Positions 988 through 41,301 of a stretch of 41,301 nucleotides of DNA are shown here, in pieces; positions within the stretch are counted from its first letter, which is position 1; each line of letters opens with the position of its first letter. The DNA comes from Bacillales bacterium UBA660 (lineage in GTDB: Bacteria; Bacillota_I; Bacilli_A; RF39; UBA660), in the NCBI GenBank assembly GCA_002299475.1, contig DBNY01000020.1, forward strand, positions 1 through 41,301. The letters run 5' to 3'. The position numbers and the translations under genes are program-made. The notes under the pieces are model-generated. The model was not told where the DNA came from. It ran no database searches and saw only the letters and a program-made list of their open reading frames with translations.

Positions 988-3087
988 CTATCTAACAATT
1001 TCAAAATCAATATTTCGTTCTTCTTTAGAAGCTGATTTAACTCTTACTCTAATATTATCACCAATTCGATACCTTTTTTTAGTTCTTTCGCCAACTAAAC
1101 TTAGAGCATTTTCGTCATATATATAATAATCGCCCTTCATTTCGTTAACGTGGATTAAACCTTCAACTAAATTATCTAATTGAACAAATAATCCGAAATT
1201 CATAACTGATGAAATTATTCCATCATATTCTTCTCCAATATGATCCAACATATATTCAGCCATTTTCATATCCGTTACTTCTCTTTCGCAATCTACAGAA
1301 CTTTTTTCTTTCAAAGAAGAGTGCTCACATAACGGAATAAGTTTTAAGTTCCAGTAATCTCTCGTCTTCATACTAAGATCTTTATTAAACAAATAAGTTC
1401 TTAATAGTCGATGTACTGTTGTATCTGGATATCTTCTAATAGGTGATGTAAAATGCGTATAACATTTGCTAGCTAAGCCATAATGGCCTACATTTTCAGG
1501 TAAATATATAGCTTTTTTCATTGACCTAAGTAAAAGATTAGATAAAATAGGAAATTCCTTTTTATCGCGTAAATAATCTAATATTTTTTGAATACTCTTA
1601 GGGTGAACATCATTTATTTTACCTTTAATTACATATCCTAAACTACCTACAAATGTTAAGAATGATCTTATTTTTTCTTCCTTTGGATATTCATGAATAC
1701 GATATATAAAAGGTAGTTTCATGAAGTATATATAGCTTGCAACCGTTTCATTAGCAGCAATCATAAAATCTTCAATCATTTTTTCCCCAGTGCCATTAAT
1801 ACGTTTTAATATTTCTATTGGCTTACCGCTATCATCAATAATAATCTTTGCTTCATCACTGTCAAATTCGATATATCCTCTTTTTTCCTTGTTTTTTCTT
1901 AAAAGATCAGCCACTACTTTCATATTGTGCAATGCTGGTATGAATTTTTCATATCCTTCTATTACTTTATTTTTCTCTAATATTTCATTAACTGCACTAT
2001 ATGTCATTTTCTTTTTAGAATTTATAACACTCTCATAAACATCATACTTAACAACTTTGCCCTCTTTATCTACTTCCATATCACAAGTCACAGTTAAACG
2101 ATCTACTAGTTCGTTTAACGAGCATATGCCATTAGATAATTTATGTGGGAGCATAGGTATTACTCTGTCCGCTAAGTAAACACTTGTGCCTCTATCATAT
2201 GCTTCTTTATCAATAGCACTGTTTTCTTTAACATAATAGCTAACATCGGCAATATGAACACCCAGTAAATAATTGCCGTTTTCTAAACTTTTTATAGATA
2301 TAGCATCATCTAAATCTTTAGCATCAGCTCCATCAATAGTAAATATTTCTTCTATTCTTAAATCTTTTCTTCTGCTTATTTCATCTTCTAGTACTACAGT
2401 AGAGATTAATTCTGTTTCATCCATTATTTCATTGCTAAATACATCATTGATATTATATTTATGAACAACAGATAAAATGTCAACGCCAGGATCATTTTTA
2501 TGACCTAAAATGCTAACAACTTCACCAAGATATTTATTGTGTCCTAAATCTTTAATAATTTTAACTAATACTTTATGCCCATTAATAGCACCTTTGGCAT
2601 TTTCCTTATCTATGACAATCGTAAGTTTAACTTTTGAATCATCTAATTTTATATAATTGATGTTTCCTTCAGTATAAAACTCTCCGACTAACTTTTCTAG
2701 TTCTCTTTTAAATACTCTAAGGATACGCCCCTCTTGACGCTGTAAATTCTTATTAGTAATTATTTCAACAATTACTAAATCATTATGAATAGCACCATTT
2801 AAATTACTATAATCAATATAAATATCTTCTGTGTTATCAGTGGCTTCAACAAAACCAAATCCTTTTTTATTGATTCTTAATAGCCCTTTTTTAAGATGAC
2901 TTTTCTCAAAAAACATATATTTATCTTTATTAGTATGATAGACAATAGATTCCTTTTTTAATTCTTCTATTATTTGAATTAGGTCTTGATATTCTTGTTT
3001 AGTTTTCAGTCCTATCAAATTATCTATTTCCATTAAACTTAATGCTCTATCACTATTAGTTAATATTTCTATTATTTTATCTTTCAT
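988..3087 (-). CDS. rnr: Ribonuclease R (3'-5' exoribonuclease)
   Basis: 699 aa. It has N-terminal HTH/OB regions, an RNB core (FTIDGADAKDLDDAIS, YLADRVIPMLP) and a C-terminal S1 domain (GIISSVMNFGLFVQL). It is adjacent to secG, as in Bacillus. Confidence 0.95.
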   Translation of the reverse strand: MKDKIIEILTNSDRALSLMEIDNLIGLKTKQEYQDLIQIIEELKKESIVYHTNKDKYMFFEKSHLKKGLLRINKKGFGFVEATDNTEDIYIDYSNLNGAIHNDLVIVEIITNKNLQRQEGRILRVFKRELEKLVGEFYTEGNINYIKLDDSKVKLTIVIDKENAKGAINGHKVLVKIIKDLGHNKYLGEVVSILGHKNDPGVDILSVVHKYNINDVFSNEIMDETELISTVVLEDEISRRKDLRIEEIFTIDGADAKDLDDAISIKSLENGNYLLGVHIADVSYYVKENSAIDKEAYDRGTSVYLADRVIPMLPHKLSNGICSLNELVDRLTVTCDMEVDKEGKVVKYDVYESVINSKKKMTYSAVNEILEKNKVIEGYEKFIPALHNMKVVADLLRKNKEKRGYIEFDSDEAKIIIDDSGKPIEILKRINGTGEKMIEDFMIAANETVASYIYFMKLPFIYRIHEYPKEEKIRSFLTFVGSLGYVIKGKINDVHPKSIQKILDYLRDKKEFPILSNLLLRSMKKAIYLPENVGHYGLASKCYTHFTSPIRRYPDTTVHRLLRTYLFNKDLSMKTRDYWNLKLIPLCEHSSLKEKSSVDCEREVTDMKMAEYMLDHIGEEYDGIISSVMNFGLFVQLDNLVEGLIHVNEMKGDYYIYDENALSLVGERTKKRYRIGDNIRVRVKSASKEERNIDFEIVR

Positions 3088-3162
3088 ATTCTACACCAAC
3101 CTTTATTTTTTTTCGTTACACTTATATTATAAAATAAAAAGGACCTAAATATAAGCCCCAAT

Positions 3163-3405
3163 TTAAAACGACAAAATTAATGATATTATAAAAAATAATA
3201 CCCCTAATATCATAGTTAATCTGCTGATAAATAATTCTGCGCCTCTTTCTTTTCTATTTTGAAACAATTCGGCATGAGCTCCCATCATTATGTTAGACGC
3301 ACTTTCCGCTTTGCCACTTTGTAATAAAACTATTGCAATTAATAAAATTGATACTATCAATAAAATATTAGCCATTATACCATTTATAGATAAAAATAAA
3401 GCCAT
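3163..3405 (-). CDS. secG: Preprotein translocase subunit SecG
   Basis: 80 aa with two TM helices flanking a polar loop (LLQSGKAESASNIMMG). Size, topology and position next to rnr fit SecG. Confidence 0.85.
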   Translation of the reverse strand: MALFLSINGIMANILLIVSILLIAIVLLQSGKAESASNIMMGAHAELFQNRKERGAELFISRLTMILGVLFFIISLILSF

Positions 3406-24778: not shown

Positions 24779-25880
24779 CTATTCTTTACAATGCTTTAAG
24801 TGCTTTTCAATAAAATCATCAATATGCCCATCCATAACCTTATTAACATTACTTGTACTATAATCAGTTCGATGATCTTTTACCATTGCATATGGATGCA
24901 TAATGTAACTTCTAATTTGAGATCCAAATTCAATTTTCATTTGTTTACCTTTAATATTATTCATTTGTTCTTTCTGTTTCTCCAACCCTAATTGATATAA
25001 CTTACTCTTAAGTATTTTGTATGCCATTTCCTTATTTTTTATTTGACTTCTTTCCTTTTGACAGGTAATTATTATCTTCGTTGGAATATGAGTAATCCTT
25101 ACGGCGCTGTCGGTTGTATTTACACTTTGACCACCCGAACCGCCGCTTCTATAAACATCAATTTTTATATCTATATCTTTAATTTCTATATCTATATCAT
25201 TTGCCATTTCCGGAAATATATCAACTGATGCAAATGAAGTGTGCCTTTTGCTATTAGCATCAAAAGGAGATATTCTCACTAAACGATGAACTCCTTTTTC
25301 ATTTTTTAAATAGCCATATGCAAATTCACCTTTGACTAACAAGTAAACACTTTTTAGACCAACTGTATCTCCTGGCTGATAATCTATTTCTTCAACTTTA
25401 TAATCATTATTTTCACACCATCTTGTATACATGCGATATAACATGTTCGCCCAATCACAAGCCTCAGTTCCGCCGGCTCCAGCATGTATCTCTAATATAG
25501 CATTATTTACATCATATGGCTGATTTAATAATAATTTTATTTCTAACTTCTCTACTTCTATCTCAAGTATTTTAACTTCGTCTTCTATCATTTTTAATAT
25601 AGATGAATCATCCTCTGTTAAAACAATCTGTAAAATTTCTAAATTACTCGTAATATTTTTGTTTGTTTTTTCTATTGCATCAATTGTATTTTTTATTTTA
25701 TGATGTTCTTTAATAATTTCATTTGCCACTTCTTTGTCATTCCAAAAAGATACATCACTTATTTTCTCACTTAATTGATACGCTTTTTCATTCTGTTTTT
25801 CTATGTCAAAGAGACCTCCCTAATTCATCTACACGAATATTTAATTTATTCAATATTCTAATTAATTCCTTTATATCCAT
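24779..25880 (-). CDS. prfB: Peptide chain release factor 2, requiring a programmed +1 frameshift
   Basis: Frame 0 runs from ATG 25880: MDIKELIRILNKLNIRVDELGRSL, then TGA (25808-25806). After a +1 shift it continues DIEKQNEKAYQLSEKISDVSFWNDKEVANEII..., joining the 316-aa track ORF. The SPF (RISPFD) and GGQ (SGGSGGQ) motifs are present. Confidence 0.93.
25805..25821 (-). promoter_or_regulatory. prfB: RF2 autoregulatory +1 frameshift site
   Basis: The minus strand reads AGGGAGG TCT CTT TGA C. This is an internal SD-like element 3 nt before the slippery CTT-TGA-C, the canonical prfB recoding signal. Confidence 0.9.
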
Positions 25881-25944
25881 GCTATCCCTCTTTCATATTT
25901 AGATTATTGTTATTATAACATTTATACCATTATTATTCCACATT

Positions 25945-29756: not shown

Positions 29757-30377
29757 ATGATAAAACAAATATTCATGCAAAAAGCAATGGCTTTAATAAA
29801 ACAACACTATTCTGATTATGAGAATATCAAATTAGAAAAGATATATTATGGTTTAGAGGGCGCTTATCTTACCATATCTAAACTATTAATTATTCTTGTA
29901 TTAGCTTATTTTTTAAATATACTTGAAGAGACATTACTGTTATTATTTTTTTTTAATATCATCAGATTGCCAGCATTTGGAATGCACGCTTCTAAGAGTT
30001 GGATTTGTCTCGTTATTTCTTCCCTTTGGTTTTTAGGCGTTCCATTATTATTAAGCTATATTGAGTTGTCTAATAGTTCGCAAATAATAATATGTCTGCT
30101 TTGTACAATAATATTTTATTTATATGCCCCTGCTGATACCGAGAAAAGACCACTAATAAATATAATTAAAAGACGAAATCTTAAAATTATATCCGTCTCA
30201 ATAACTATAGTCCTTTCTATATTGGCTATTAATATAGATAACATATATATATCTAATATGATTATAGCAGCCATTATAATTGAAAGTATTATGATTATGC
30301 CAATAACATATAAATTGTTTAACCAAGAATATAACAATTATAGAAAATATGTTCTAAAGCCGATATCAATTAATTAA
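29757..30377 (+). CDS. agrB: AgrB-type accessory gene regulator B (AgrD-processing membrane peptidase)
   Basis: 206 aa, polytopic. YYGLEGAYLTISK...RLPAFGMHASKSWIC places His and Cys 7 residues apart, like the catalytic H77/C84 of S. aureus AgrB. Confidence 0.85.
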   Translation: MIKQIFMQKAMALIKQHYSDYENIKLEKIYYGLEGAYLTISKLLIILVLAYFLNILEETLLLLFFFNIIRLPAFGMHASKSWICLVISSLWFLGVPLLLSYIELSNSSQIIICLLCTIIFYLYAPADTEKRPLINIIKRRNLKIISVSITIVLSILAINIDNIYISNMIIAAIIIESIMIMPITYKLFNQEYNNYRKYVLKPISIN

Positions 30378-30433
30378 ATATGGCTATAAATATGTATATA
30401 TATTTAAGCAATTTTGAGCAAGGAGGTGCGATT

Positions 30434-30556
30434 ATGAAAAAAATATGTGCTTTTGCATTATTGAGTATTGGATTATTGGCAGCAAATGCTGCCTCAACTG
30501 CTAGTGCTTGGTTACTTCTTGATGAGCCTGAGATGCCAAAAAGTTTAATCAATTAA
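30434..30556 (+). CDS. agrD: AgrD-type autoinducing-peptide precursor (40 aa; below the ORF-track size cutoff)
   Basis: AGGAGGTG (30421-30428), 5 nt, then ATG. The translation is MKKICAFALLSIGLLAANAASTASAWLLLDEPEMPKSLIN. It has a hydrophobic leader, a short core and the acidic AgrD recognition tail DEPEMPKSL. It starts 56 nt after agrB. Confidence 0.8.
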   Translation: MKKICAFALLSIGLLAANAASTASAWLLLDEPEMPKSLIN

Positions 30557-30578
30557 ATCAAAATATAAGCTAATTAAA

Positions 30579-30597
30579 AAACCCTATAAAAGGGTTT
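30579..30597. repeat. Left copy of the 19-bp target-site duplication
   Basis: AAACCCTATAAAAGGGTTT is identical to 32294-32312. It is itself a hairpin (AAACCCT/AGGGTTT). Confidence 0.85.
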
Positions 30598-32293
30598 CAG
30601 ACTGTTGACAAATAGATTAATATTTCAATCTATTTGTTCAATAGCCTTTTTTATTGATTGATTTATTAAACAAACGCGTGTTGATATTTATTTTTGATGT
30701 ATATCATACAGTTACAGGAGGGTGTAATGCAAATTTCTTCAAATTCATACATGCATAAAGGAGGGTGAGTTCTTGACTAACCCTTTCTTTAGTTCTAAAG
30801 TATGTCTTTCTAAGACCATACTTTTCTTTTCCGTCTGCATATATTCTTTCAATATGCTCAGGTCTCTGCCTGTATATTTTTTGAACATCTAAATGGTGTC
30901 TATAATCATTTGCCATATCCTTATATTCCTCCCAAATGTGTCTTAATACCTGTTTATATTTTGATTTTGTACATTTATTTTTAAATGTACATTTTCGACA
31001 ATCTTTTTCACAAGCTTTATAGATTATATATCCATTTTTGTTTATACCAGTTGGTATTAAATCCTTTTCATTAGGGCAAATATAAATATCGTTCTTTTCA
31101 TCATAAACAAATTCGTATTTCTTAAAATATCCTTTTTTGGTCATTGATCTTTTGTACGGGAATGTTGGCTTCATATTCAAATCTATTAAAGTTTTACATA
31201 TATGAGGGGTTACATAGGCTGCATCTCCTACAAAATATTTAATATTATTTATATCATACTTATTTAATAATTTATCAAACGAAGAATAGAATGCCATTGA
31301 ATCATGCATATTTGAAGGATTAACGTCAACCGTTAATATGTAATTATTGTTATCACATATTACTGAACTATTATACCCAAACATTTTTTCTTTCTCATTT
31401 TTATAAAGCATCCCAGCATCCGAATCAACATCACTTACTATTACTTCTTTTTCGCCCAATAATTCTTCAGTTGGTATTTCTTCATTACAGTTTATAATTT
31501 TTTGTATTTCTTCTAAATATTCTTCGTCACTTAAATCTTCATCCTTCAATCCTTTTAAAGCTATTTCTAATGATAAATCTTTTTGATATTTCTTCGCCTG
31601 TATTTTTACTATTTCCTTGTGATTCTTTTTCCTGTTGGCATATGCTTTAGTATTTGTTGAATCTATATATACGGCCGTCAAATCTAAATAATTATATTCT
31701 TCTAACAAGGCAATTACTTTATCAAATACTTTTTGTAGTATATCGTTCTCTAAGCGACTAAATTTTCTTTTATAATTTTGTGAATATGTTGAATGATCTG
31801 GCATTTCTTCGTTTAATTCATACCCTATAAACCACCTGTACAAATTGTTATATTTTAAAGTCTCATATGTTTTTCTTAAACTGTCTTCATTAAAAAGGAA
31901 CTTTAATATATGAATTTTAAATAGTACAACGGGATCTATACTTGGTCTTCCAAATACAGAGTATTGTTTTTCTACTTCTTCATATATAAAGTCCCAATCA
32001 AAATATTTATTTATTACTCTTAAAAAATGATTTTGAGGTATTATTTCGTCAAGATTTATTATTTCACTTTGATATATTGTTTTTGGTTTTTTGGTCATCA
32101 TATTTATCACTTGCCTTTCTTATATAACCCATATATATTATACCATTTTTTCCCTTATTTTTCAACGGATTACATAAAAAAATGTAAGAACTGCAAGCTT
32201 TAATTTTGGATTATATAAAGCGTTCTTACAATTTAATTATACATTATATCTTTAAAAAAGAAAAGACTATTGACTTACTTTGTCAACAGTCTG
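30598..32293 (-). mobile_element. IS1182-family-like insertion sequence, 1,696 bp
   Basis: Perfect 15-bp terminal inverted repeats: CAGACTGTTGACAAA (30598-30612) and TTTGTCAACAGTCTG (32279-32293). It is flanked by a 19-bp direct repeat and has a single transposase ORF. A subterminal 10-bp hairpin CAAATAGATT/AATCTATTTG lies at 30609-30636. Because the target is palindromic, the exact IR/TSD boundary could shift by up to 6 bp. Confidence 0.85.
30704..32110 (-). CDS. DDE transposase (IS1182/IS5 superfamily)
   Basis: 468 aa with an N-terminal DUF772-type region (FGRPSIDPVVLFKIHILKFLF...SLRKTYETLKYNNLYRWFIG). The C-terminal region has ERIYADGKEKYGLRKTYFRTKERV...ACMNLKKFA. The length fits IS1182 better than IS5. 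Confidence 0.8.
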   Translation of the reverse strand: MINMMTKKPKTIYQSEIINLDEIIPQNHFLRVINKYFDWDFIYEEVEKQYSVFGRPSIDPVVLFKIHILKFLFNEDSLRKTYETLKYNNLYRWFIGYELNEEMPDHSTYSQNYKRKFSRLENDILQKVFDKVIALLEEYNYLDLTAVYIDSTNTKAYANRKKNHKEIVKIQAKKYQKDLSLEIALKGLKDEDLSDEEYLEEIQKIINCNEEIPTEELLGEKEVIVSDVDSDAGMLYKNEKEKMFGYNSSVICDNNNYILTVDVNPSNMHDSMAFYSSFDKLLNKYDINNIKYFVGDAAYVTPHICKTLIDLNMKPTFPYKRSMTKKGYFKKYEFVYDEKNDIYICPNEKDLIPTGINKNGYIIYKACEKDCRKCTFKNKCTKSKYKQVLRHIWEEYKDMANDYRHHLDVQKIYRQRPEHIERIYADGKEKYGLRKTYFRTKERVSQELTLLYACMNLKKFALHPPVTV

Positions 32294-32312
32294 AAACCCT
32301 ATAAAAGGGTTT
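32294..32312. repeat. Right copy of the 19-bp target-site duplication
   Basis: AAACCCTATAAAAGGGTTT. It contains the TAG stop (32299-32301) and the last five codons (K-K-T-L-L) of the agrC-like gene. Confidence 0.85.
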
Positions 32313-33627
32313 TTTTATCGTTTACTTTTATTTCTAAATATTGGATATACAAACCATTAGTAATTTCCCTACTTTGAAAAAACTTTGGGTTTTTCTTGAT
32401 AATTGATTTTACTAAAGATAGCCCATAACCTCTTCCAACACCCTTAGTTGAATAACCACTTTTATCAAATTTATCAACCTTTAATTTGCCAACAAAAGTA
32501 TTGGCTATCGCTATCTTTATATTGTTGTTTTCAAAATAAAATTCAATCCCTATTTGCTTCTTTTGGCAAAGTTGTACCGCCTCTATAGCATTATCTAAAT
32601 AAACACCTAAAACAGTACATAAATCTCTATAATCATTAATATTTATTTTAAGAAATTCTTCTTTCTTCAACTCTTTACTAATATCTAATGATAAATTTAT
32701 ATTCTCATTTCTCATTTGGGCGATTTTATAGTATATAAGTCCTTGTAATCCTCCCTTTGGAATTTTGTTTATTTTAATTAACCACAAATCCTCTAGCACA
32801 GTCGCATTTGATAATATGCCTTGTATATATTCTAATGCCCTCTTATTGCTCTTTGCTATCAAGCTTTTTATTACTATTAACTGATTTTTATTTTCATGAT
32901 TTTTAATTATTTCTCTTTCCATCCAGTCCTCAAAAGTCTTCACGTAATTAACCAATTGTTCATATTTGCATGTTAATTCCTGACTTTTAATATATTCAAA
33001 CATAAATATAAAAAAAATCACTATAAGAGCTACAATTAGTAAAATATTTATAAACAAGCTATTATTTAAGTGAAAATTACTACCCACTTTAGAAAATAAT
33101 ATTCCAAGAATAATAATTTCCATCAAAACGAACAATATGGTTATAGTTTTTCTTTGATTATTAACTATTCTTAATAATTTTACCAATACTTGTCTAATTT
33201 TGCTTATTTGCAAAAGATAAAACGCAATACCACACACTAATGTATTTATTAATGAATAAACTACTGTGCCTCCATCTCTAATATGATTAATATCAAAATT
33301 AAAAACAAATATAATAATCAAAATTAAGATAATCTCAGCAAGTGACTTTAAAATTATTACAATAAATGATAAAACTACTGCTTTTTCAATTGGTATTTTA
33401 AATACATAACCATAACTATAACTGATGATTATAAAAATTATTAAGGTTGTTGTAAAATCATATTGTATTTGGCTGAATAGTGTAATTAATAATGCTGTAA
33501 ATAAAATTATTATTAAATTTTCATTATATAAATTAACTTTTTTATGTGACAATTTAGAAACGATTAAAATCCCTACAATAGTTGTTAATAGACCCCCGAA
33601 TAAAAACTTATTAACAAATTCTAACAT
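32299..33627 (-). CDS. agrC: AgrC-like (HPK10 family) membrane histidine kinase
   Basis: 442 aa with ~6-7 N-terminal TM helices and a candidate H-box IIKNHENKNQL. It also has an N-box YLDNAIEA and a G-box GVGRGYGLSLVKSI. It overlaps the upstream response-regulator gene by 17 nt. Confidence 0.8.
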   Translation of the reverse strand: MLEFVNKFLFGGLLTTIVGILIVSKLSHKKVNLYNENLIIILFTALLITLFSQIQYDFTTTLIIFIIISYSYGYVFKIPIEKAVVLSFIVIILKSLAEIILILIIIFVFNFDINHIRDGGTVVYSLINTLVCGIAFYLLQISKIRQVLVKLLRIVNNQRKTITILFVLMEIIILGILFSKVGSNFHLNNSLFINILLIVALIVIFFIFMFEYIKSQELTCKYEQLVNYVKTFEDWMEREIIKNHENKNQLIVIKSLIAKSNKRALEYIQGILSNATVLEDLWLIKINKIPKGGLQGLIYYKIAQMRNENINLSLDISKELKKEEFLKININDYRDLCTVLGVYLDNAIEAVQLCQKKQIGIEFYFENNNIKIAIANTFVGKLKVDKFDKSGYSTKGVGRGYGLSLVKSIIKKNPKFFQSREITNGLYIQYLEIKVNDKKTLL

Positions 33628-34330
33628 GTTCCTTTAGTCCTTTCTTTTTCCCCCTAGCTAATAAATATAAATGCTCATTATTATTAAAAGTAATTTTCCC
33701 GTCCTTAAAATCGATTTTTTTAATGTAGTCTTTATTTACTATACAACTTCTATGACTTTGAAAAAATCTACTATCTAACTTTTCCATTATACTTGATATA
33801 TTATCACAAACACTATACTCCGCATATATGGTCCTAATAACTGATTTTCGTTCAATAGTATCCTTAATTATATAAATTATATCGTCATATTTTATTTTAT
33901 ATAAAATACTGCCATTTTCAAAAATTAAAGACTTCTTATGTTCTAATATTTTAATAGCTATTTCTAAAGAACTCTTTAATCGTTCTTCAAAATTAATATA
34001 CTTTGAAATAAAATCTAATAGCATTAATCTGCTCTTTATCGCCTCTAATCCCAACTCATAATGAGCGGTCACAATAATTATAATGCTATTCCAATCTTTT
34101 TCCCTTATTTTTCGAGCGATGTCAAGACCTGATCTAGATGACAATTCAATATCTAATATGTAAATTTTTTTTATGTTTGTCTGTTCTATTATTTTTTTTA
34201 CTTTATTATTATAATCATCAAACTCATGAATAATATAATCAAGATCTTGAGGCATCATTGTCTTTGTTATTAAATTCGTTATGTTCTCTTTTATGTTTTT
34301 ATCATCTTCACATACCACAAAATTAAACAT
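33611..34330 (-). CDS. agrA: LytTR-family response regulator (AgrA-like)
   Basis: Receiver domain (FVVCEDD...ILDIELSSRSGLDIARKIRE) plus a LytTR DNA-binding domain (FFQSHRSCIVNKDYIKKID). I prefer the start ATG 34330 (MFNFVVCEDD). The track start at 34342 is a TTG abutting GGGG. Confidence 0.85.
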   Translation of the reverse strand: MFNFVVCEDDKNIKENITNLITKTMMPQDLDYIIHEFDDYNNKVKKIIEQTNIKKIYILDIELSSRSGLDIARKIREKDWNSIIIIVTAHYELGLEAIKSRLMLLDFISKYINFEERLKSSLEIAIKILEHKKSLIFENGSILYKIKYDDIIYIIKDTIERKSVIRTIYAEYSVCDNISSIMEKLDSRFFQSHRSCIVNKDYIKKIDFKDGKITFNNNEHLYLLARGKKKGLKEHVRIC

Positions 34331-34415
34331 TAAATAAATCAACCCCTTTTTGTTTGCTTTACGCTACTATAATAATACCATATTTTTACAATTTGTGCCA
34401 AATAAAAACAACCAC

Positions 34416-39953: not shown

Positions 39954-40160
39954 TTATTTTTTATTTAAACCATACTTTTGATTAAACTTTTCTATACGTC
40001 CTGTTTTAGATGTTCTTCCTTGTTTTCCAGTATAAAAAGGATGACATTGGGAACATACTTCTACATTAATGTTCTCGTTAGTTGATTCTGTATCAAAAGT
40101 TGAACCACATGTACATGTTACTTTAGATTGCTTATAATTTGGATGTATATTCTTTTTCAC
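39954..40160 (-). CDS. rpmE: 50S ribosomal protein L31 (zinc-binding type A)
   Basis: [10 protein letters not shown]...CTCG...[12 protein letters not shown], 68 aa. Confidence 0.95.
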
Positions 40161-40241: not shown

Positions 40242-40315
40242 TAGTTAATTTGCATAAGGTGTTTGGTTTTTCTCATAGAAGAGGTAAAGGGGATAAATAC
40301 AAATTCACTACAGGT

Positions 40316-41301
40316 CTAAAATCCCGAACTCACCACAAGCACTGGACGAAACCCAGTGCGTCCCTCCGCGCTACCCCAAATGGAGTGAAAAAAGAACGGG
40401 CCGGCACCAGAGCCGCCAGCGTACCAGTTTCCGCGAATAAACCACGGTGCGCCAGTTTGTGGCATCAATGTCGAATCGCTAAACCAGCCGAATGCACCCA
40501 TAGTAGCAGCGCTACTTGTTTCCCATACAGCATCGCCTTTTATATTTTCTGTCAGATTGTAATTGTTAGTTTCATTATCTGGCGTACCCATAGTATATAT
40601 GTCTCTATATCGTGGATCAGCATTTATTATTTGCGGGCCATTAGCCATTAAATTAGCATGTCCGTTGTTTACGTACGCAGATGCGAATTCCCAAGTACCA
40701 CCGCTCATATCATACACGCCAGTTATATTGCCATTTGTTGATGCTTGTACTCCGTTTGTTGTATGGTATTGTTCACATGCCAGGGTCGACGTTGCTGATG
40801 CGCTTGTTCCTGCACACCCTGTTGTAGGGAAGATATTTGGATTTACCCATACCTCAACTGTATCTTTTCCTCTATTTGATTTTGATAAGTATGCTACTGC
40901 TCCCCATTCACTATTTTTCATTAAATGAGTATCTATACCAGCTCCCGTTGTTCCCCAGCCATATACGGCATTTGTTTCCATATTACGTGAAACTTGAAAT
41001 GCATTTCCTATATTTATACATCTCCATGGTGTGACATTTGGTACTATTCTTACTGTTTTGGTTGTAACATTGTCTCCGGCTGTTGGGCATGACCAATCAG
41101 GAACATATTCATTAGCTAATCCTTCGGCCGCAGTAGCTTCAAACTTTGCTACCCATATACCTGATACTTTTTGGTTGCCAAAGTTAAATCCAGGATGTTC
41201 AATAAAATTTGTTTGACTACTTCCACTATATGTTGCTGTACTTACTACCGTTGAACCATCTGCTGCTATTTTACTTAATCCTCTTAAAAACCTTATATTT
41301 A
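40316..41301 (-). CDS. FGE-sulfatase (SUMF1)/C-type-lectin-fold domain protein; N-terminus beyond the right edge
   Basis: The track ORF (40316-40981) stays open in the same frame to 41301. My translation of the extension is NIRFLRGLSKIAADGSTVVSTATYSGSSQTNFIEHPGFNFGNQKVSGIWVAKFEAT...VPNVTPWRCINIGNAFQVSRNMETNAVYGW. FGE-fold landmarks are HLMKNSEWGAVAYL, GVYDMSGGTWEF (compare GLYDMxGNVWEW) and the terminal RGNW...GFRPVLVV. Family assignment is from motif memory only. Confidence 0.6.
   Translation of the reverse strand, partial: NIRFLRGLSKIAADGSTVVSTATYSGSSQTNFIEHPGFNFGNQKVSGIWVAKFEATAAEGLANEYVPDWSCPTAGDNVTTKTVRIVPNVTPWRCINIGNAFQVSRNMETNAVYGWGTTGAGIDTHLMKNSEWGAVAYLSKSNRGKDTVEVWVNPNIFPTTGCAGTSASATSTLACEQYHTTNGVQASTNGNITGVYDMSGGTWEFASAYVNNGHANLMANGPQIINADPRYRDIYTMGTPDNETNNYNLTENIKGDAVWETSSAATMGAFGWFSDSTLMPQTGAPWFIRGNWYAGGSGAGPFFFHSIWGSAEGRTGFRPVLVVSSGF
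40319..40540 (-). other. GC-rich, adenine-depleted 3' coding segment (candidate hypervariable / DGR VR-like region)
   Basis: Hand counts give 40321-40500 = 103/180 G+C. There are only 14 coding-strand A in 40321-40440. See findings. Confidence 0.4.
40339..40359 (-). repeat. 7-bp perfect inverted repeat inside the last 15 codons
   Basis: The plus strand reads GCACTGG-ACGAAAC-CCAGTGC. An alternative overlapping stem is GGACG/CGTCC. Confidence 0.7.

Follow-up and report, generated by a model that had tools for sequence, protein, structure and literature searches.

The window analysed here, a stretch of 41,301 nt from contig DBNY01000020.1 of Bacillales bacterium UBA660 (assembly GCA_002299475.1), ends inside a minus-strand gene for a pilin-like protein, of which only the 3' part is present (Table 1). 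An exact match of its thymidine kinase (tdk) places the window on contig Ga0326330_1000112 (41,375 nt) of Joint Genome Institute (JGI) metagenome 3300031922. This source contig stops 42 nt past 41301, so that the 5' half of the gene is missing; the open reading frame (ORF) is intact down to its stop codon at 40316-40318. The last codons of the gene form a short tip that has very probably been written by the mutagenic retrohoming of a diversity-generating retroelement (DGR), as judged from its homology to six proven DGR targets, the fold of the protein, an avoidance of adenine that is strand-specific and includes synonymous sites, and a run of codons ending in a pyrimidine (NNY). This tip is referred to below as the variable region (VR), and the repeat that would serve as its donor as the template repeat (TR).

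The composition of the tip is far beyond chance. In the window as a whole G+C amounts to 28.4% (0.284), and it is 16/60 in a sample of the adjacent rpmE gene (39961-40020), where the coding strand has 30 A in 60 nt. In the successive blocks 40321-40380, 40381-40440, 40441-40500 and 40501-40560 of the tip, a recount gave 36, 34, 33 and 24 G+C out of 60, and the coding (minus) strand of 40321-40440 holds 14 A per 120 nt. Fourteen of the 15 in-frame codons at 40379-40423 are NNY, within a C-terminal peptide that reads APWFIRGNWYAGGSGAGPFFFHSIWGSAEGRTGFRPVLVVSSGF up to the stop. The G+C, adenine and NNY counts of the first-pass annotation, which had singled out this tip as a candidate VR, were all reproduced exactly. 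Stretches of 120 nt with at least 50% G+C all start at 40283-40424 and nowhere else in the window, spanning 40283-40543 together, and the peak (0.61 at 40333) stands at z = 5.7 over the rest of the window. The lowest coding-strand adenine content per 120 nt (13-14) likewise falls in the tip, with 47 on average and no fewer than 25 in the remainder. For the VR, G+C is 0.58 and A is 0.12, with 12 A in the 108 nt of its core (40336-40443). Third codon positions follow the same pattern: in the last 42 codons A is 0.10 and G+C 0.55, compared with 0.45 and 0.23 in the gene body. Amino-acid content alone cannot explain the tip, because the depletion of adenine extends to synonymous sites, and the anomaly is a strand-specific loss of adenine rather than a general shift in G+C.

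The protein to which this tip belongs is a member of a large family. The 327-codon fragment has 3,516 homologues at E <= 0.001 in the protein collection, and those with a name come from metagenome-assembled genomes (MAGs) of uncultured low-GC Bacillota. Full-length homologues measure 500-560 aa, are usually annotated as 'type II secretion system protein' or 'PilA', and open with a type IV prepilin signal and helix (…KGFTLxELLAVIVILAII…, PF07963), a domain that is precomputed for most of them; an example is P0002 (64% identity), with MVKKQGFTLVELLAVIVVLGIIL. At the opposite end, the family alignment reads PWFxRGGxYxxGSxAGAFxFxxxxGGxxSxxGFRPVL, with hypervariability at the x columns, all within the last ~40 residues. 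The tip had been placed at the C-terminus of a C-type lectin (CLec)/FGE-type fold, and structure prediction bore this out. The AlphaFold2 model of the fragment (predicted local distance difference test 76.6, predicted template modelling score 0.83) has as its best Foldseek match in the PDB the DGR variable protein TaqVP (5vf4; E 2e-7, probability 1.0, identity 15%), followed by FGE, TvpA (2y3c) and Mtd; the template modelling score of the TaqVP match is modest, ~0.4, despite the strong E-value. In Pfam, FGE-sulfatase (PF03781) matches residues 157-208 with 18.6 bits and E 0.0015, under the gathering cut-off of 23.3 bits. The resemblance to FGE is supported at the level of the fold and does not imply FGE enzymatic activity. 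Since the N-terminus lies off the contig, the pilin-like identity of the protein is taken from its homologues, from which it appears to be a type-IV-pilin-like surface protein with a C-terminal CLec/FGE-type domain for ligand binding.

The closest of these homologues, P0001 (79% aa identity), comes from a second contig that belongs to the metagenome of the window, Ga0326330_1001251 (L001; 9,181 nt, G+C 0.31). There, the target gene is followed by a 111-nt repeat (TR, 1277-1387), a bAvd gene (1651-2028) and an RVT_1 reverse transcriptase (RT) gene (2013-3044). All 11 substitutions between the VR of this contig and its TR lie at TR adenines, with 0 elsewhere, and the two sequences part exactly past GTGCTTG. 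L001 is a textbook DGR of the order target-TR-Avd-RT. Its VR (927-1034) is one codon (3 nt) shorter than the TR, within an AAC AAC AAT run; retrohoming normally keeps length, and the deficit suggests slippage or a later deletion. Counterparts of the end at which VR and TR part on L001 are found in the window at 40300-40342, where ~35/39 positions are identical to the end of the L001 VR. Nothing else in the 3' half of the gene is as well conserved as this segment, which is, from its sequence and position, a candidate target-recognition end of the type known as IMH (initiation of mutagenic homing). The VR core ends 20 nt before the stop codon of the gene.

Five further relatives of the window protein, with identities of 32-46%, are proven DGR targets as well. 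Their VR/TR mismatches fall at template adenines in 14 of 15 cases (L018), 20 of 21 (L059), 10 of 10 (L065), 26 of 26 over the best-aligned 147 nt (L074) and 18 of 18 (L087), and all five share with L001 the order target-TR-Avd-RT. For L087, 14 of the 31 differences among strains in its protein cluster lie in the last 45 residues, so that diversification is seen directly in a family member with a DGR beside it. The complete target-TR-bAvd-RT cassette of L087 (10001-13579) sits within a division and cell wall (dcw) cluster, flanked by mraZ-rsmH and a penicillin-binding protein (PBP) gene on one side and by a PBP gene and mraY-ftsW-murG on the other.

By this mechanism, a TR would be transcribed and then reverse-transcribed with misincorporation opposite adenines, and the mutagenised cDNA would replace the VR. 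A working TR would have to keep its scaffold positions free of A, synonymous sites included, and about three quarters of the adenines remaining in its AAY codons would be changed in the VR. The expected outcome is a VR that is A-poor, NNY-rich and G+C-rich even in a genome with ~28% G+C. For the proposal that the window tip is such a VR, homology, fold and composition offer strong support; the defining evidence for this copy would be a cognate TR with adenine-only mismatches or polymorphism restricted to the VR, and no such TR was found in the window, on L001 or in the public collections scanned.

The gene is a paralogue that stands apart from any DGR cassette, among genes of the core chromosome. 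Directly downstream and on the same strand lies rpmE, in the position taken by TR, Avd and RT in the DGR-linked relatives, so the order target-avd-TR-RT is excluded at this locus and any template must lie elsewhere, as had been anticipated. The same-strand series continues with tdk, rpiB, spoIID, an M23 peptidase gene, spoIIID and mreB. Core chromosomal genes make up the rest of the window (RNase R, tpiA, pgk, gap, clpP, whiA, uvrA, uvrB, ftsEX, prfB, secA and hpf), which additionally holds an agr-like locus with an insertion sequence (IS).

Table 1. Coordinates of the features discussed, given in positions of the 41,301-nt window.
Feature	Position	Strand	Basis or remark
Target gene, 3' 986 nt (C-terminal 327 codons and stop)	40316-41301	-	Translation; homologues; structural model
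VR core, 108 nt	40336-40443	-	Colinear with L001 VR 927-1034 and TR 1277-1384; A-depleted, G+C-rich
VR 3' end and downstream flank, GTGCTTG / TGGTGAGTTCGGGATTTTAG / ACCTGTAGTGAATTTG	40300-40342	-	Counterpart of the point of divergence between L001 VR and TR
Spurious antisense ORF, 133 aa	40250-40651	+	ORF list; opened by the A-poor, G+C-rich VR; not a gene
rpmE (ribosomal protein L31)	39954-40160	-	ORF list; Pfam Ribosomal_L31 on the same gene in L003
agr-like quorum-sensing locus	29757-34342		Split into two halves by an IS
AgrB gene	29757-30377	+	Part of the agr-like locus
IS-type DDE transposase gene	30704-32110		Between the two halves of the agr-like locus
GHKL histidine kinase and LytTR regulator genes	32299-34342	-	Part of the agr-like locus
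prfB, start region	25805-25881	-	ORF0 from ~25881 ends AGGGAGGTCTCTTTGAC; main ORF runs to 24779

The spurious ORF that crosses the VR on the plus strand has a counterpart on L001, where the TR is crossed by an antisense ORF (1246-1431, minus strand) that was called as a 61-aa gene. Antisense ORFs over the window VR and the L001 TR are likely to be gene-calling artefacts typical of DGR repeats. Elsewhere in the window, prfB appears from its sequence to carry the classical programmed +1 frameshift, with a Shine-Dalgarno-like element and CTT TGA C at the end of ORF0 and a main ORF encoding PCRF and RF-1 domains.

How usual such an isolated family member is was estimated by a genome scan with one genome per GTDB species, covering 555 relatives, from which the best 80 loci (L005-L084) were taken with up to 10 kb on each side. 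RT and Avd accompany the gene at 4 of these 80 loci, and the remaining 76 have no RT within 10 kb; copies of a TR at other loci of the best 80 were not found. A family member without an adjacent cassette is thus very usual. In the last 120 nt, the tips of DGR-adjacent members have G+C of 0.51-0.63 and coding-strand A of 0.08-0.17. Tips of unlinked members form a continuum that runs from such DGR-like values to G+C of 0.21-0.35 and A of 0.30-0.42, values that equal those of the gene body. With G+C 0.58 and A 0.12, the window tip stands at the 'fresh' end of this continuum, within the range of the DGR-adjacent members. The continuum would be explained by decay after the loss of templating. One of the loci, L021, carries two family genes whose 3' ends (167-326 and 3161-3320) are 93% identical, with 11 mismatches that are not adenine-specific; the sequences suggest ordinary duplication or gene conversion and not a TR/VR pair.

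That unlinked copies can be written from a remote template is indicated by MAG GCA_050948845.1, the host of P0002. This MAG contains two full-length copies of the gene, one between thrS and sirA-gyrB (L002) and another between ligA with a beta-lactamase-family gene and camS-gatCAB (L090), and no DGR was found within 10 kb of either. Over ~1.4 kb upstream of the VR the two copies are 96-99% identical. Within the 105-nt VR (11436-11541 in L002, ~11440-11545 in L090) there are 23 differences, 20 of them at codon positions 1-2, and ordinary divergence begins only past the GFRP motif. A third copy, P0123 on the L002 contig, and a variant from the JGI collection, P0124, have the same VR scaffold with other residues at the same columns. 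Judging from these alignments, at least three scattered copies in this MAG differ within the VR only at codon positions typical of DGRs and apparently owe their tips to a single template; the corresponding cassette was not located. Non-adjacent or remote targets are established for cellular DGRs (PMC5758913).

The reading tentatively adopted for the window copy, at just under an even chance, is that it is still being rewritten, as a remote target that would be served in trans by a TR, Avd and RT elsewhere in the genome, other than the L001 cassette. It is based on the undecayed composition of the tip, its intact ORF and conserved 3' end, the precedent of GCA_050948845.1, and the adenines of the VR that are absent from the L001 TR. 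There are six of these, and four of the six occupy codon positions 1-2 of NNC codons, which would fit a TR of its own with AAC codons at other positions.

Several results weigh against continued rewriting, beginning with the failure to find the elements it calls for. No RT or Avd gene was found in the window by tblastn with RT and Avd of a related DGR (best E ~1), nor did Pfam yield RT or Avd domains when run on the window ORFs of 90 aa or more from the main coding strands. A TR was not found in the window either, by blastn with short words or by an adenine-tolerant scan of both strands, in which the best candidate had 23 non-A mismatches in 108 nt; the first-pass annotation had likewise seen no TR, Avd or RT here. 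It had suggested that they lie beyond 41301 or act in trans. As for that suggestion, the template is indeed not in the window, while the sequence beyond 41301 ends after 42 nt and is otherwise unassembled. A DGR past the 5' end of the gene is unlikely by analogy, since target-TR-Avd-RT is the order in each of the six linked relatives. The search was extended with an IUPAC pattern allowing 'VR base or A' at conserved positions, which, run on the local sequences, picks up both the window VR and the TR of L001. It gave 0 matches in the JGI metagenome contigs and 0 in IMG/VR, the window's own sample being absent from that metagenome collection, and an exact 26-mer of the target gene also had 0 matches in the JGI metagenome collection. 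In the protein collection there is no homologue with more than 79% identity to the window protein, and hence no strain variant of the window gene.

The templates that are available point in the same direction. Between the window VR and the L001 TR, which is the sole related TR seen in this sample, there are 33 mismatches in 108 nt. Eighteen lie at template adenines, so that 18 of the 24 adenines are changed, the expectation for randomised positions; the remaining 15 lie at non-adenine positions, ~18% of the non-A sites, which is about the overall divergence of the paralogues. The L001 cassette was therefore rejected as a trans template of the window VR: retrohoming would have erased these 15 differences, and the VR has not been rewritten from the L001 TR since the paralogues split. 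L085, from another sample and with an RT 100% identical to that of L001, has a TR identical to the L001 TR, and the TR of L086 (80% RT identity) differs and does not fit the window VR; the L093 contig is too short to take in a TR. A repeat matching 40319-40450 with mismatches at adenines only, which had been proposed as the sign of a cognate template, was accordingly missing from the window and the public collections, and the L001 TR fails in this respect.

Contig ends bear on the relation of the two copies. The window contig (41180-41301) and L001 (1-180) break off within the gene at almost identical positions, where DNA identity climbs to 97-98%. The assembly seems to have stopped at a 5' half that is repeated, in which case several copies probably have the pilin N-terminal part in common. 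The shared ends are consistent with paralogues in one population, and L001 may belong to the same genome.

Further points against continued rewriting come from strain comparisons and from the VR itself. In six of nine clusters of near-identical strain variants the tip is unchanged and the differences lie elsewhere, although these are very close strains that say little on slow or conditional DGR activity. The unlinked copy L091, with no RT or Avd within 7.4 kb upstream and 10 kb downstream, has the same tip in four strain variants and yet a G+C of 0.54 and A of 0.12-0.13. In the window VR, the codon CCA in GFRPVL puts an A in an otherwise A-free 3' terminal segment and TTT exceeds TTC, both compatible with some drift after templating. 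Two markers of activity were discarded. Composition cannot serve as proof of current activity, given the strain-invariant and unlinked tip of L091. A hairpin after the VR, of which there is none in the window, is uninformative: the proven VR/TR pairs L001 and L074 lack one too, and perfect stems of 8-10 bp with 4-nt loops occur in L018, L059 and L065.

The strongest alternative, which has an only slightly smaller chance of being right, is that the window tip is an orphaned or fossil VR. The gene would then be a duplicate of a DGR target whose rewriting has ceased, either through loss of the template or because the gene diverged from the one DGR of its genome, and the tip would be a footprint of past templating that has yet to erode. 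This would account for the lack of a TR everywhere it was sought (the window, the cassettes of L001, L085 and L086, and the public collections), for the failure of the sister TR of L001 in the adenine test, and for the prevalence of loci without an RT among the best 80. The continuum of unlinked tips is as expected for decay after orphaning, and L091 shows that a footprint can persist. The static tips of most strain clusters agree with it, and the clearly hypervariable cluster whose locus could be assigned lies next to a DGR. In MAG CAMOBD, the TR of the DGR locus L074 fits neither of the paralogues L020 and L024; this is weak evidence since the MAG may be chimeric. The small signs of drift in the VR add to this side. 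Orphaning is harder to reconcile with an undecayed tip, whose composition tops the range against a genomic background of ~80% A+T at third positions, with an ORF intact to its stop, and with a recognition-end sequence that is conserved above the remainder of the gene's 3' half. In addition, a close relative (GCA_050948845.1) does have co-templated copies at remote sites, and the invariance of the clusters was seen among very close strains.

Explanations that do without a DGR are very unlikely, even taken together. Selection on the protein or on codon usage, with no retroelement involved, would require a lectin-fold tip rich in Gly, Ala, Arg, Pro and Trp to be built from G+C-rich codons. G, A, R, P, W and F residues do abound in the tip, and many family members retain the motif with no DGR nearby. 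This idea is largely refuted by the scarcity of A at synonymous third positions; moreover, other unlinked members encode the same motif with A+T-rich codons in tips at 0.21-0.40 G+C, so the protein does not require such a composition, and all six DGR-adjacent members share the signature and have proven TR pairs. It is accordingly given very little weight. Least credible of all is a mosaic origin by horizontal transfer of the 3' end from a high-G+C donor, suggested by the abrupt step in composition inside one gene: the same step is seen in the best 120 homologues (down to ~45% identity), all from low-GC uncultured Bacillota or unnamed metagenome contigs, no near-identical homologue of high G+C appeared among the matches, the top match at 79% coming from a contig at 0.31 G+C, and the anomaly is one of adenine on one strand.

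Several known systems resemble the one described here. The DGR of Treponema denticola, with TvpA as a variable protein, is likewise cellular rather than phage-borne, acts on a C-terminal VR in an FGE/CLec-type fold and serves scattered targets from one TR; its remote targets are documented (PMC5758913, PMC4891356). In Treponema, however, every remote VR matches the TR with A-only differences, and no such TR was found for the window copy. The two also part at the N-terminus, where TvpA has a lipoprotein module and the family of the window gene a type IV prepilin helix. TaqVP from Thermus aquaticus has its VR at the C-terminal end of a CLec/FGE-type fold, like the window protein, but is not linked to pilins and sits in a canonical cassette. 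The mechanism proposed here is that of Mtd from the Bordetella phage BPP-1, with adenine-specific retrohoming from a TR to a 3'-terminal VR in a CLec fold. BPP-1 has a cassette, a phage host and a tail fibre, whereas the window copy has no cassette and no detectable hairpin, and belongs to a cell host and a pilin-like protein.

Diversified pili are known from other bacteria too. DGRs of Bacteroides diversify the adhesins of type V pili (bioRxiv 10.1101/2024.11.15.621889), where, as here, the adhesive part of a pilus-associated protein is varied in gut-type anaerobes. Those are type V (FimA-like) pili of Bacteroidota, in contrast to the type IV prepilin N-terminus (PF07963) and low-GC Bacillota of the present family. 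The pilE/pilS system of Neisseria also varies the exposed C-terminal part of a type IV pilin and has several paralogous copies, partial or complete, per genome; it works by RecA-dependent gene conversion from silent cassettes, with no RT and no adenine signature, and the analogy is functional only. The mechanism, the CLec-fold variable proteins and the remote targets are all established already, and in terms of mechanism the window gene would be a DGR target like others, though in an arrangement that is less usual.

Its compositional footprint alone, made of strand-specific adenine depletion that includes synonymous sites and of an NNY run, flagged a DGR-type VR with no retroelement in 41 kb. 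Metagenome-scale surveys of DGRs miss non-adjacent targets by their own statement, as the VR must adjoin the RT (PMC8144416), and a type IV prepilin N-terminus as a module of DGR targets has only a passing mention in the literature searched (PMC11661182). The continuum in tip composition could act as a clock for the time since templating was lost. Together with the 4 of 80 loci that have an adjacent RT, it gives a measurable view of the turnover of DGR targets, from their gain and sharing in trans to their abandonment.

The wider picture is offered more tentatively still. Uncultured low-GC Bacillota may carry a large and essentially undescribed family (>3,500) of lectin-fold adhesins anchored by type IV pilin sequences, whose tips would be written by chromosomal DGRs on copies scattered among housekeeping genes. 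Such copies would pass through a life cycle of duplication, diversification in trans, loss of templating and decay of the tip, and the window copy would be an active remote target of a second, unseen TR. If this is true, the community holds more than one template for a single pilin family. A family of DGR targets anchored in this way suggests programmable adhesins at the pilus tip in Bacillota of the gut and of digesters.

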